Positions 25,610-62,333 of a stretch of 64,000 nt of DNA are shown here, piece after piece. The stretch lies in sequence record OK335775.1; one strand, 5' to 3'. Within the stretch, counting starts at the first letter, position 1, and each line of letters begins with the position of its first letter. The translations under genes and the position numbers were made by a program. The DNA comes from Escherichia phage PSD2002. The notes under the pieces were generated by a model that saw only the letters and a program-made list of their open reading frames with translations, did no database searches and had not been told where the DNA came from.

Positions 25610-25699
25610 GTAGCAAAATGTGGTGCCTTATTTGGATGGCCTGTATCCCAGTGATTTGCGTATGTTTTAGTTTATTGTTGTGGAAATTGGCATAAATCA

Positions 25700-25728
25700 G
25701 TATACATCTCCGTTAATCATGATACTAT
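25700..25728 (+). promoter_or_regulatory. Early promoter
   Basis: GTATAC-N17-TACTAT, with inverted repeat CATCTCC/GGAGATG. Confidence 0.5.
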
Positions 25729-25754
25729 AGACCTATCAACTAATGGAGATGATT

Positions 25755-25865
25755 ATGAAAAACTTACTTAAAGCAATTTGGAACATGTTTGTGTTGTTAA
25801 TGGTATTGAGCATTTTCCCAATCGTTTTTATGATTGACCATGTACGTGTATTCTTTAACTTCTGA
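25755..25865 (+). CDS. Hypothetical small membrane peptide
   Basis: 36-aa hydrophobic ORF after promoter 25700-25728. Confidence 0.3.
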   Translation: MKNLLKAIWNMFVLLMVLSIFPIVFMIDHVRVFFNF

Positions 25866-60251: not shown

Positions 60252-60575
60252 ATGGAACTTCCTATTAAAGCGGTCGGAGAATATGTTATTCTCGTTTCCG
60301 AACCAAAACAAGCCGGTGATGAAGAAACTACTGCATCTGGTATCGTTATTGGCAAACTTCATCAAGGTGAAATCCCTGAACTTTGTGAAATTTATTCTGT
60401 AGGACCTGATGTCCCTGAAGATTTTTGTGAAGTAGGCGATTTGACTCCACTTCCTGTTGGTAAGATTGCTAACGTGCCTCATCCGTTGGTTGCATTGGGT
60501 ATTAAACAACCTAAAGAAATTAAACAAAAATTCGTTACCTGTCACTATAAAGCTATTCCTTGCCTTTATAAGTGA
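60252..60575 (+). CDS. 31: Gp31 co-chaperonin (GroES analogue)
   Basis: 107 aa; [48 protein letters not shown] match T4 gp31. Confidence 0.9.
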
Positions 60576-60583
60576 TATAAATA
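60576..60583 (+). promoter_or_regulatory. Late-promoter-like TATAAATA downstream of gene 31
   Basis: Exact TATAAATA 140 nt upstream of rIII, at the start of an ORF-free structured interval. Confidence 0.35.
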
Positions 60584-60721
60584 ATAATATGGATTGGCTG
60601 CCGGACTAGTTAGTTAACCGGAGAATCCTAAGCGGTGGACTACAACTGAGAGACTTGCCGAAAGGAAGTGAAATTCAGAAGAACGTGTCCACCAATCTTT
60701 ATCTCGAATTGAGAAACTAAA

Positions 60722-60970
60722 ATGAACAAACAATTGAATCACGCTCTTGAACTGCAACGCAACGCTTGGAACAACGGTCACGAAAACTACGGCGCATCTA
60801 TTGATGTTGAGGCCGAAGCACTGGAAATCCTGCGTTATTTCAAACATCTGAATCCTGCTCAGGCTACTCTGGCTGCTGAACTGGAAGCTAAAGATGAACT
60901 GAAATTTGCTAAGCCTTTGGCTTCAGCAGCTCGTAAAGCAGTACGTCATTTTATTATTACCCTGAAGTAA
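60722..60970 (+). CDS. rIII: rIII lysis-inhibition accessory protein
   Basis: 82 aa after gene 31; size and position as T4 rIII. Confidence 0.8.
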   Translation: MNKQLNHALELQRNAWNNGHENYGASIDVEAEALEILRYFKHLNPAQATLAAELEAKDELKFAKPLASAARKAVRHFIITLK

Positions 60971-61232
60971 GTTAAATCGAGGAGCCGTCGAACTGTTTGA
61001 TTAATGATTTGCGAATCATTATAGTTTTAAGACCCCAACAGTTTTACGGTGTACCTCTTGAATGTATTTTGTACTATCACGCGTCAGAAAAAGGTTATCT
61101 GTCTAAGTCGTGGTTGGTATGATGACGAGGTTTATGGTTATCCTGTCGTTAAATATCCTAAACCTATGTTCCCCTTGAGGGCTTGCGCAGGCAACGCCAA
61201 TAAGTCCTGCATCCTAATTTAAGAGATTTAAA

Positions 61233-61394
61233 ATGGCTAAGAAAGAAGTTAAAGTAGTTGACGGTACCTCTAAACGCGCTGGTTACAAGCGTGCGTCCAA
61301 CAAGCGTATCAATCAGGTAGTTGATAAGCTTCAAGCTCGTGCTCGTGCAGTATTGCGTGCAGATGCTGCTTGCTTTGGTAAGCCTCAGGCATAA
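61233..61394 (+). CDS. Hypothetical small basic protein
   Basis: 53-aa ORF below cutoff, Lys/Arg-rich, followed by a strong terminator. Confidence 0.35.
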   Translation: MAKKEVKVVDGTSKRAGYKRASNKRINQVVDKLQARARAVLRADAACFGKPQA

Positions 61395-61399
61395 GTTAT

Positions 61400-61428
61400 G
61401 GGACTCCGAAGAGTCCCATTTTTGTTTC
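61400..61428 (+). terminator. Rho-independent terminator
   Basis: GGGACTC-CGAA-GAGTCCC plus ATTTTTGTTTC. Confidence 0.7.
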
Positions 61429-61445
61429 TAAATCTTTAAAAAAAT

Positions 61446-61474
61446 GGTGTACATCTCCGGTAGGCATGATACTA
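61446..61474 (+). promoter_or_regulatory. Early promoter cassette
   Basis: GTGTAC ... TACTAT followed by the leader ACCAAATAATACGAAAACAAACT, which is repeated at 61925. Confidence 0.5.
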
Positions 61475-61516
61475 TAGACATGTACCAAATAATACGAAAA
61501 CAAACTGGAGAATAAA

Positions 61517-61885
61517 ATGAAAATCAATCTTAACTCATATATCAAATGTAAAGACCACGACGGTTACAAAGCAATCGAAACTAAAGAAATGCAATGGCAC
61601 TTGTACAAAGAACAATTTGAATTTGTAGGTTGCATGACTCCGGAAGGTCCTTCTGATGACTTCTCTTGGAAAATTATGGTAACAAACTTTTTTACCGGTG
61701 ATACCTACGAACTGAAAACTATCATAACCGGTAAGATTCGTTGTAAGACCTATGAAGATGAAGAAACCGGTTATTCTGAAGATGTTACATGGTATCAAAA
61801 TGGTCGCACTACTGCTGATGAGTTGATTGAAAAAATGAAAGCCAAAGGTGAATTAAATTTAGATAATTGGATTAAAGTTGCATAA
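61517..61885 (+). CDS. Hypothetical protein
   Basis: 122-aa ORF after promoter 61446-61474 and GGAGAA. Confidence 0.45.
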   Translation: MKINLNSYIKCKDHDGYKAIETKEMQWHLYKEQFEFVGCMTPEGPSDDFSWKIMVTNFFTGDTYELKTIITGKIRCKTYEDEETGYSEDVTWYQNGRTTADELIEKMKAKGELNLDNWIKVA

Positions 61886-61889
61886 AACA

Positions 61890-61919
61890 GTTTACTTTGG
61901 TACAGGTTGTGTTATTATA
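61890..61919 (+). promoter_or_regulatory. Early promoter cassette
   Basis: GTTTAC ... TATTAT flanked by inverted repeat GGTACAGG/CCTGTACC, then the same leader as at 61475. Confidence 0.55.
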
Positions 61920-61967
61920 GACCTGTACCAAATAATACGAAAACAAACTAAACCAAAGGATAATAAA

Positions 61968-62333
61968 ATGAACTACATCAACTTCGAACGTAAATATGTT
62001 TCTATCGGTGCGGTTGGTTCTAACGAATACATGTGTTTATGGGAGCATAAAAACGGTTCAGTTTGCGAAATCGACCATTGGGTTTCTCCTGATTATGTTT
62101 ATATGCGATTTGAAAATGGTATCACTCTTTCAATCACTAAAGAAGGTTCTTCTTTTAAAATAGCTTTAGATGATGATTTCCGTCAACGTGATTTAGGTAC
62201 TCATCCTTGCTGGAACGGCGTTAATCGTAAGCTTCTGGTTAAAACCTGGATTCGTCACATCCTGAGCAACCGAGCTAAACCTGAACACCTGGAAGCAATC
62301 TTTGATGTAGTTCTGAACGAATTCGATATCTAA
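61968..62333 (+). CDS. Hypothetical protein
   Basis: ATG 61968 after AAGGA; promoter 61890-61919. Confidence 0.45.
   Translation: MNYINFERKYVSIGAVGSNEYMCLWEHKNGSVCEIDHWVSPDYVYMRFENGITLSITKEGSSFKIALDDDFRQRDLGTHPCWNGVNRKLLVKTWIRHILSNRAKPEHLEAIFDVVLNEFDI

Follow-up and report, generated by a model that had tools for sequence, protein, structure and literature searches.

The interval between rIII and gene 30.9

The stretch analysed here is 64,000 nucleotides (nt) of Escherichia phage PSD2002 (OK335775.1; hereafter the window), a T4-type phage of the JS98/WG01-like genus Dhakavirus. On the plus strand the genes run in the order cd, 31.2, 31.1, 31, rIII, a gap, 30.9, an intrinsic terminator, an early-promoter cassette and 30.8. 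The gap between rIII and 30.9 very probably encodes a conserved RNA structure on the sense strand, with an H-type pseudoknot (module B1) at its core. The landmarks of the locus are the following:

60252-60575, plus strand: gene 31, as context
60722-60970, plus strand: coding sequence (CDS) of the upstream neighbour rIII, an 82-amino-acid (aa) open reading frame (ORF), annotated as rIII in PSD9, JS98 and T4
60971-61232: the rIII-30.9 gap, 262 nt between the rIII stop and the 30.9 start
61220-61235, plus strand: ribosome-binding region (AAGAG) and start codon of 30.9, read from the sequence
61233-61394, plus strand: gene 30.9, a 53-aa strongly basic protein, homologue of T4 gene 30.9
61398-61429, plus strand: intrinsic terminator after 30.9, with a 9-bp stem at 61398-61419 (5 G-C pairs) and a T-run

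The first-pass annotation had described a non-coding interval downstream of rIII that ends at the Shine-Dalgarno (SD) sequence of a 53-aa basic ORF, with a strong terminator beyond it. Both descriptions are borne out by these coordinates. The rIII stop codon (TAA) occupies 60968-60970, and the rIII product shares 89% aa identity with T4 RIII. The 1 kb around the gap shares 99.4% identity with Shigella phage PSD9 and further Dhakavirus genomes (JS98, WG01, QL01, Bp7) and has matches in 767 phage records. T4 shows this arrangement too, its gap being 244 nt long (NC_000866 130541-130784); in JS98 the gap measures 352 nt.

Pseudoknot B1

The universally conserved core of the gap was delimited with a covariance model (R1) and pair counts:

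61118-61171, plus strand: module B1, an H-type pseudoknot
61124-61130 with 61142-61147: stem 1, GAC-G-AGG paired with CCTGTC
61136-61139 with 61161-61164: stem 2, loop bases GGTT paired with AACC
61148-61160: near-invariant crossing strand, GTTAAATATCCTA

Both stems are replaced by other complementary sequences in other clades. Stem 1 reads GTC.TGG/CCAGAC, GTC.TAG/CTAGAC, GGC/GCC, GTGGA/TCCAC or GTT..GG/CC..AAC, and stem 2 reads GGTAG/CTAC, GTGAG/CTCAC, AGGTT/AACCT, GTTGGTT/AACCAAC or TCAAGGTT/AATCTTGG. In three alignments, pairing and covariation exceeded those of slid controls; the shuffle control for B1 pairing ignores phylogeny:

Hand alignment, 24 sequences: paired cells 84.1% (slid controls 36-52%), covariation 0.40 (0.05-0.14)
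Untouched MAFFT alignment, 24 sequences: paired cells 76.9% (31-50%), covariation 0.31 (at most 0.16)
Model-made alignment, 35 distinct sequences: paired cells 78.9% (36-50%), covariation 0.313 (at most 0.161)

The model behind the third alignment describes stem 1 only, and 11 of its sequences were not used for deriving the structure. In it the outer pairs of stem 1 are formed in 35/35 sequences with three pair types each, and the core pair of stem 2 is GC in 27, AU in 5 and GU in 3, with none unpaired. Unaided, RNAalifold recovers the outer pairs of stem 1 from the plain MAFFT alignment, none of them broken. The most divergent member, from Yersinia phage fHe-Yen9-01 (38.8 bits), lay outside the derivation of the model and retains both helices with new sequences (GTG.AAG/CTT.CAC and GATGG/CCATC). 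The helices of the gap, the pseudoknot included, thus covary.

A nested pairing of AGGTTTA with TAAACCT (61128-61134 / 61159-61165) can be drawn in the T4/Dhakavirus clade only. We preferred the pseudoknot register because the nested one shows no covariation outside that clade.

The most conserved positions are unpaired loops, namely GTTAAATATCC, TTATCC, CAATAAGT and AAAAGGTTA; the loops of the leaders also include GUUAAAUAUCC.

A 14-nt inverted repeat with 86% complementarity (61149-61162 / 61218-61231) joins the B1 crossing strand to the ribosome-binding site (RBS) region of 30.9.

Modules A, Y, B2 and P3

B1 is flanked by further hairpins, all of which, like B1, show compensatory base changes and plus-strand G-U pairs:

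60975-61066, plus strand: module A, an irregular stem-loop of ~85 nt in which strands 60979-60997 and 61037-61057 pair
61002-61021, plus strand: apical hairpin of module A, the palindrome TAATGATT-TGCG-AATCATTA, arms complementary at 8/8 positions
61074-61117, plus strand: module Y hairpin, outer stem CTATCACG/CGTGGTTG, inner stem CAGA/TCTG, loop AAAAGGTTA, asymmetric internal loop of C against TAAGT
61168-61185, plus strand: module B2, a short G+C hairpin CCC-CTTGA-GGG with conserved flanks GT(T/A) and CTTG
61187-61210, plus strand: module P3, hairpin GCAGG/CCTGC with loop CAACGCCAATAAGT

Invariant G-U and U-G pairs occur on the plus strand only. On the opposite strand they would be A-C mismatches, so the folding strand is the mRNA strand. 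Module A pairs GAGG with CCTC, GCCGT with ACGGT and GAACTGTT with AACAGTTT, and holds an unpaired 3' segment, TAGTTTTAAGACCCC. Among 10 distinct sequences RNAalifold gave it 25 pairs, 5 with compensatory changes, and invariant plus-strand G-U pairs; its single-sequence fold has an energy of -23.9 kcal/mol (z = -3.56). For module Y (8 sequences, fold z = -2.30) the same program found 15 pairs, 5 of them compensatory, and plus-strand U-G pairs; examples are CAGA/TCTG against CAGC/GCTG and CACG/CGTG against CATG/CATG. The B2 variants CCCT..AGGG, CCTC-TTA-GAGG and CCT-TCG-AGG still pair. The P3 stem appears elsewhere as AACTGG/CCAGTT, GGGAGC/GCTCCC, GTGGAG/CTCCAC, GAGAG/CTCTC or GGCGA/TCGCC, and as GCGGG/CCTGC, with a G-U pair, in locus L171. 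A terminator scan called no terminator inside the gap: P3, with its 5-bp stem and 14-nt loop, is followed by ATCCTAATTT and has no good U-tract. Some relatives carry TTTTATT after the last leader hairpin.

The palindrome had been reported before; its arms are as described and its true position is one base further left, at 61002-61021. An 8-bp palindrome is by itself within chance for 64 kb. This one goes beyond chance because it is conserved and covaries in relatives. In L161 it reads TATCGATT-TACG-AATCGGTA, with two pairs altered yet kept, one of them through a U-G wobble. These changes preserve RNA pairing and break the dyad symmetry of the DNA, and the palindrome caps a longer stem that covaries. 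The suggestion that it is a protein-binding site in DNA thus finds no support. A resemblance to a Fur box was dropped as well: the half-sites are loosely similar, but the spacing is wrong and the likeness is not kept in L161.

The same comparisons bear on whether the region works as DNA, with a sigma-70-type promoter (60997-61025 or 61050-61078) driving 30.9 and the palindrome as an operator in the spacer, which we regard as highly improbable. A consensus scan does find TTGATT-N17-TATAGT at 60997-61025 with the palindrome exactly within its spacer. The resemblance to early-promoter cassettes pointed out in the first-pass annotation is also genuine in the window, where GTGTAC-N17-TACTAT (61050-61078) repeats the hexamers and spacing of the neighbouring early promoter at ~61450. 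That second match is not conserved, however: in T4, JS98 and L167 its -10-like part is missing or 11 nt away. Promoter-like sites in the scanned region numbered 7, against 4.2 +/- 2.1 expected by chance, and the L161 changes retain RNA pairing but neither the DNA symmetry nor the -35/-10 hexamers. Transcripts from such starts would also be without the 5' strand of the covarying module A stem, and many phages with 30.9 have no module A at all.

Coding potential and conservation

The gap is the longest stretch of the window without an ATG-initiated ORF of at least 50 aa on either strand. The first-pass annotation had seen no ORF of meaningful length; this stands in that there is no ATG start, family match or conserved frame, and needs qualifying in that mechanical listing yields GTG- or TTG-initiated ORFs of 41-57 aa that overlap the gap:

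61049-61222: 57 aa, GTG start
60997-61122: 41 aa, TTG start
61164-61334, minus strand: 56 aa, TTG start

None of these matched Pfam or PHROGs. They are not kept in relatives: in 38 homologous gaps the longest ATG-initiated ORF measures 7-57 aa, and the gaps share no frame.

The 93-nt block after rIII (module A) is 97.8% identical to T4, and the 95-nt block before 30.9 (block B, comprising B1, B2 and P3) is 91.8% identical. The flanking genes are less similar to T4: rIII is 84.1% identical (66% at third codon positions), gene 31 77%, 30.9 68% and 30.8 58%. Between the A and B blocks lies a variable insert of ~3 nt in T4, 52 nt in the window (module Y) and ~150 nt in JS98 (module X). Single-nucleotide insertions or deletions between T4 and the window within block B break every reading frame. 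The region is non-coding and is constrained more strongly than the neighbouring genes.

The first-pass annotation had also raised a decayed gene, and had suggested looking for an ORF in the syntenic region of relatives. Overlap with the 41- and 57-aa mechanical ORFs is what speaks for a decayed or frameshifted protein gene. We see practically no chance of this, because the gap is better conserved than the intact genes around it, the frames are not conserved but disrupted differently in each relative, and the helix substitutions are compensatory; the gap ORFs also lack family matches. Annotation pipelines should accordingly call no ORFs across the gap and should not extend 30.9 into it.

Distribution and order of the modules

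We gathered the rIII-30.9 gaps of about 45 distinct loci from phages and metagenomes. They measure 120-420 nt and draw on a limited set of units whose presence and order vary:

CE1 (Tequatrovirus): B1-B2-P3 only, 126 nt
LF82-8 (Mosigvirus): Y-B1-B2-P3
T4: W-A-B1-B2-P3
Window: A-Y-B1-B2-P3
CC31: B2-B1-Y
Klebsiella phages: T-B1-W-X-B2-Z

W and T are further small hairpins, found in relatives only. Module A is missing from CE1, LF82-8, CC31, PM2 and the Klebsiella phages. Module Y occurs in some Dhaka-, Tequatro-, Mosig- and Karamviruses and takes a different position in CC31. B2 stands before B1, not after it, in CC31, L175, L177, L181, L192 and TG1. B1 itself is present in at least 12 genera as assigned from the taxonomy lines of the sequence records: Tequatro-, Mosig-, Dhaka-, Gelderland-, Mosuguk-, Karam-, Moon-, Marfa-, Teguna-, Roskilde-, Winkler- and Muldoonvirus.

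B1 occurs as a single copy in strict linkage with 30.9. With filters off, R1 has a single match in the window (61118-61171, 72.5 bits; next best 13.5), where true B1 members score at least 38.8 bits. No extra copy of any module, as a regulon or repeat family would have, was found in the 64 kb: BLAST returned self-matches only, and R1 the one match. In the loci anchored on rIII, all R1 matches lie between rIII and 30.9 on the gene strand. Among 856 kb of unrelated viral contigs, selected for having a 14-mer in common with B1, only two true T4-like loci scored high, at 61.4 and 54.5 bits and the others at most 25.6. A scan of the collection with the AT-rich 14-mer CGTTAAATATMCNAAA gave mostly chance matches and served as a negative control. 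In L189 and L206 a terminator follows rIII directly, and neither 30.9 nor B1 is present. B1 is likewise missing from L188 and L190, in which only 10 nt lie between rIII and a short 30.9.

Units are also shared with the leader of rIII. The cassette preceding rIII consists, in order, of a hairpin, a linker, a Z-type hairpin, a U-rich linker, an SD hairpin and the AUG. The window has its only copy of the Z-motif pattern in front of rIII; Klebsiella-, Karam-, Moon- and Roskilde-type phages have the same Z hairpin in front of 30.9. P3 looks like a cut-down Z hairpin with the inner hairpin removed, and its loop motifs CAAC...AA(G/U)AA(C)GU also occur in the rIII leader. Since a Z hairpin stands before both genes and P3 is Z-like, the adjacent rIII and 30.9 genes carry paralogous leader cassettes, and the units shared with rIII look like leader elements. 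One intergenic site of T4-like phages thus gathers and swaps folded RNA modules, and the leaders of rIII and 30.9 have parts in common.

Module X is an insert of ~140 nt in the rIII-30.9 gap of JS98 (L001, 2083-2225) and of L039, L040, L042, L043, L175, L181-L186, L217 and L220. It is about 90% identical across genera, stands before or after B1 depending on the phage, and has at least 4 covarying helices, a GNRA tetraloop (GAAA/GTAA), multi-helix junctions and an invariant strand, GCTAACGGTGTGCAACAGAT. It matched nothing in Rfam, and an X 20-mer was absent from 185,579 bacterial and archaeal genomes. Module X looks like a complex, unclassified folded RNA; a likeness to conserved regions of RNase P RNA, not backed by Rfam, was dropped.

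Yersinia phage TG1 (L215, 560-600) has the full leader B2-B1-W-Y and no annotated 30.9 CDS. Its next annotated gene, of 627 nt, starts from a TTG at the position expected for 30.9 and may be a fusion or a mis-annotation.

The product of gene 30.9

The 53-aa gp30.9 has a net charge of about +10 and belongs to phrog_1427, a PHROG of unknown function. It has no Pfam match and no relative in the PDB. Its 41 homologue clusters are all labelled 'hypothetical' and all lie in T4-like phage contigs. AlphaFold predicts, with moderate confidence (predicted local distance difference test, pLDDT, 70.9), a disordered N-terminus plus two helices; this predicted fold is compatible with a nucleic-acid-binding peptide and is not evidence for one, and the model is too uncertain or too simple for a meaningful search by fold.

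Many deposited T4-like genomes label the 30.9 ORF '1,4-alpha-glucan (glycogen) branching enzyme, GH-13-type' (H45, H51, H58, H61, H67, H68, H81, H86), often with the ORF extended upstream into the non-coding pseudoknot region. The label is an artefact of annotation pipelines and has reached UniRef too (P0018).

Comparison with known RNA classes and systems

An Infernal/Rfam scan, proposed with the first-pass annotation, found none of the 4227 models of Rfam 15 in 60971-61232 even at E <= 10. Eight homologous loci gave no match at E <= 5, and the whole window had no gathering-level match. With ARAGORN, neither the window nor 10 loci yielded a tRNA or tmRNA, and the T4 stable RNAs rnaC and rnaD showed only chance matches of 7-10 nt to the gap.

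In the leader of lambda N, the nutL boxB hairpin and an RNase III hairpin precede the gene of the small arginine-rich N protein, which binds its own leader RNA and thereby brings about antitermination and translational autoregulation. The 30.9 leader resembles it as a long (>200 nt) structured leader before a tiny, basic, largely unstructured protein in an early operon, and the terminator after 30.9 recalls the N setting, by analogy only. Unlike in lambda, no boxA- or boxB-like motif was identified (no motif model was applied), and gp30.9 has no homology to N. For T4, N-type antitermination has been hypothesised only (PMC2988021). In the Escherichia coli rpsO/S15 and rplT/L20 leaders, a pseudoknot precedes the gene of a small basic RNA-binding protein under autogenous control (PMC1888825, PMC3616713). 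In contrast, gp30.9 has no detectable relation to ribosomal proteins, and no target of mimicry is known.

The preQ1-I, SAM-II and fluoride riboswitches are like B1 in size, topology, A-rich third loop and invariant unpaired nucleotides. Unlike these H-type pseudoknots, B1 has no Rfam match, RBS overlap or ligand-related gene context; it ends at least 55 nt before the SD sequence and does not overlap it. In Klebsiella-, Karam-, Moon- and Gelderland-type leaders the RBS region is a small hairpin that pairs CUCC with the SD sequence GGAAG.

We know of no sequence resemblance between B1 and the T4 gene 32 leader. Both are H-type pseudoknots in a leader conserved across T-even relatives, and that of gene 32 serves as an operator for autogenous control (PMC3014915; PMC10690425). 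The gene 32 product is of nucleic-acid-binding type, and its pseudoknot, like B1, is missing from Rfam (PMC10690425), which makes a missing Rfam match weak evidence for novelty. The two differ downstream: an unstructured A/U-rich tract runs from the gene 32 pseudoknot to the start codon, whereas the gap has the hairpins B2 and P3 (X and Z in relatives) at a variable distance.

PeSL cassettes of T4-type phages are likewise small conserved intergenic modules shuffled between related genomes (PMC4122927). They combine a terminator-like stem-loop with an early promoter, TTTACW-N17-TAYWAT, in many copies per genome. The gap modules are unlike them, with no T-run, no conserved promoter, a single copy in 64 kb, and a pseudoknot and internal-loop hairpins. 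We rejected the gap as a PeSL cassette on the first three counts, the promoter-like GTGTAC-N17-TACTAT being lost in T4, JS98 and L167. The window does have genuine PeSL-like cassettes a little further downstream (about 61440-61516 and 61890-61970).

We found no description of the structured rIII-30.9 gap in Rfam or in the searchable literature, which left out some work on rIII/30.9 expression. We class the element as a structured phage mRNA leader, a known kind of element.

Possible functions of the gap

A non-coding RNA locus was among the options of the first-pass annotation. Its RNA part is upheld by the conserved sense-strand structure; a separate RNA gene is less likely than a part of the rIII-30.9 mRNA, because the gap has no conserved promoter or terminator of its own. 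We favour the gap as a cis-acting, specifically recognised leader that controls the expression of 30.9 or the stability of its mRNA, and we give this about an even chance of being correct; the role, the binding factor and the direction of the effect are what we infer here. We favour it because of the strict linkage to 30.9, the lack of transcription signals of its own, the cassettes shared with the rIII leader and the precedent of T4 gene 32.

The gap would be transcribed within the rIII-30.9 message and would fold into a chain of independent sense-strand modules, A, Y, B1, B2 and P3, with B1 as the constant core and the others optional and interchangeable. A trans-acting factor may then recognise the near-invariant loops; candidates are gp30.9 itself, which would make the control autogenous, ribosomal protein S1, or another phage RNA-binding protein. 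RIII has been reported to bind S1 (PMC9409239). Recognition would set the translation and/or stability of the 30.9 message, and the compact folds might also shield the 260-nt untranslated spacer from Rho and RNase E.

Several observations weigh against such a leader. Homologues of 30.9 without any leader exist: in L188 (1535-1669) and L190 (1534-1668), from T4-like phages with 162-168-kb genomes, a shorter 44-aa homologue (MSARKGYKRKTNKRINQ...) begins 10 nt past the rIII stop without a structured leader, so expression of 30.9 does not in itself require a leader. The distance from B1 to the 30.9 start varies from 68 nt in the window to about 250 nt in Klebsiella phages, and B2 lies before or after B1 depending on the phage; a simple RBS operator would be expected at fixed spacing. 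Pairing of the B1 crossing strand with the 30.9 RBS, which we considered and rejected, was not above shuffles (z -1.6 to +1.4, 38 leaders) and is not conserved. Stem 2 has only 4 bp and is invariant within the T4/Dhakavirus clade, so that its support comes from other clades, and part of the support for the pseudoknot comes from alignments shaped by our own model. Finally, the loops are conserved beyond the needs of stability, which fits specific recognition and would fit a trans-acting RNA or RNA-protein particle equally well.

The modules could also make up a working non-coding RNA, or join gp30.9 in an RNA-protein particle. Such an RNA would be cut from the polycistronic transcript and act in trans; it might be a decoy or sponge that captures a host or defence protein, or it might partner the small basic protein of the adjacent gene. 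We consider this unlikely. The near-invariant loops and the identity of 92-98% between genera in which proteins share 60-85% would suit it, as would the modular, order-independent layout, the complex accessory modules of relatives with GNRA tetraloops and multi-helix junctions (module X, for example), the strict co-occurrence of B1 with the long form of 30.9, and a very basic gp30.9 with a predicted disordered N-terminus and helices. No conserved promoter, terminator or recognisable processing site marks its bounds, however, and it has no similarity to rnaC, rnaD or any Rfam family.

The structure might also have no specific partner. The T4 gene 32 leader is a known mRNA stabiliser, and the gap modules are freely swapped, added and lost, as would befit interchangeable insulators or stabilisers of mRNA ends in an untranslated spacer of an early/delayed-early operon, folded against Rho and endonucleases. 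Untranslated T4 delayed-early transcripts are indeed sensitive to Rho and nucleases (PMC2988021). Yet an insulator needs pairing and not sequence, and here the unpaired loops are the most conserved positions; nor does insulation explain why there is a spacer at all, given that in L188 and L190 only 10 nt separate rIII from 30.9. We hold this passive role to be rather improbable.

B1 could also sense a small molecule, with B2, P3 and the SD region as the expression platform. The fit is in the architecture: about 50 nt, H-type, with an A-rich crossing strand and invariant unpaired nucleotides beside covarying helices. According to the 2010 T4 review by Uzan and Miller, T4 as yet had no characterised riboswitch or trans-acting regulatory RNA, and candidates might emerge from the genomes of relatives (PMC3014915). 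But no Rfam riboswitch model matches at E < 10, the regulated gene 30.9 has no metabolic annotation, B1 lies 55-250 nt from the RBS with variable modules between, P3 in the window has no good U-tract after it, and no alternative pairing with the SD sequence was significant. A riboswitch aptamer is therefore quite improbable.

In the boldest reading, B1, alone or bound by gp30.9, would be a dedicated regulatory RNA switch of T4-type phages: either a riboswitch-like sensor, the first of the group, or an N/nut- or put-like element. We regard this as a long shot. In the N/nut- or put-like case, B1 would modify RNA polymerase or the ribosome, for instance by letting transcription run past the strong 30.9 terminator and on into the gene-30 (DNA ligase) cluster. 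In both cases the shuffled neighbours A, Y, X and Z would be a family of mobile functional RNA domains. The cis-acting leader remains the reading we prefer, and the gap holds a candidate regulatory RNA: a pseudoknot of ~50 nt with near-invariant loops, in at least 12 genera, beside rIII and tied to the functionally uncharacterised 30.9. T4 serves as the reference among lytic phages, and the B1 element is small and present in T4 itself, within NC_000866 130541-130784.

The rIII leader and neighbouring cassettes

The spacer between gene 31 and rIII (60576-60721, 146 nt) is itself a conserved structured leader, without a match in Rfam, that opens with the late-promoter motif TATAAATA. Its hairpin 1 is GGATT...AATCC (GAATT...AATTC in T4). 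Its Z hairpin is GGTGGAC-TACAAC-[GAAA-capped hairpin]-GAAGAACGT-GTCCACC, with GGTAGTC/GACTACC in T4, and a small hairpin lies over the rIII SD sequence. All its hairpins covary in comparison with T4.

Two early-promoter cassettes of the window (61440-61516 and 61885-61970) share the tail (T/C)GTACCAAATAATACGAAAACAAACT and precede the SD sequences of 30.8 and of the next gene. They are PeSL-like mobile regulatory cassettes, and the copy at 61440-61516 is the one with which the first-pass annotation had compared the gap. The second-longest ORF-free stretch of the window (25610-25839, 230 nt) contains an early-promoter cassette, GTATACATCTCCGTTAATCATGATACTATAGAC, followed by an unlisted 36-aa hydrophobic ORF from 25756.

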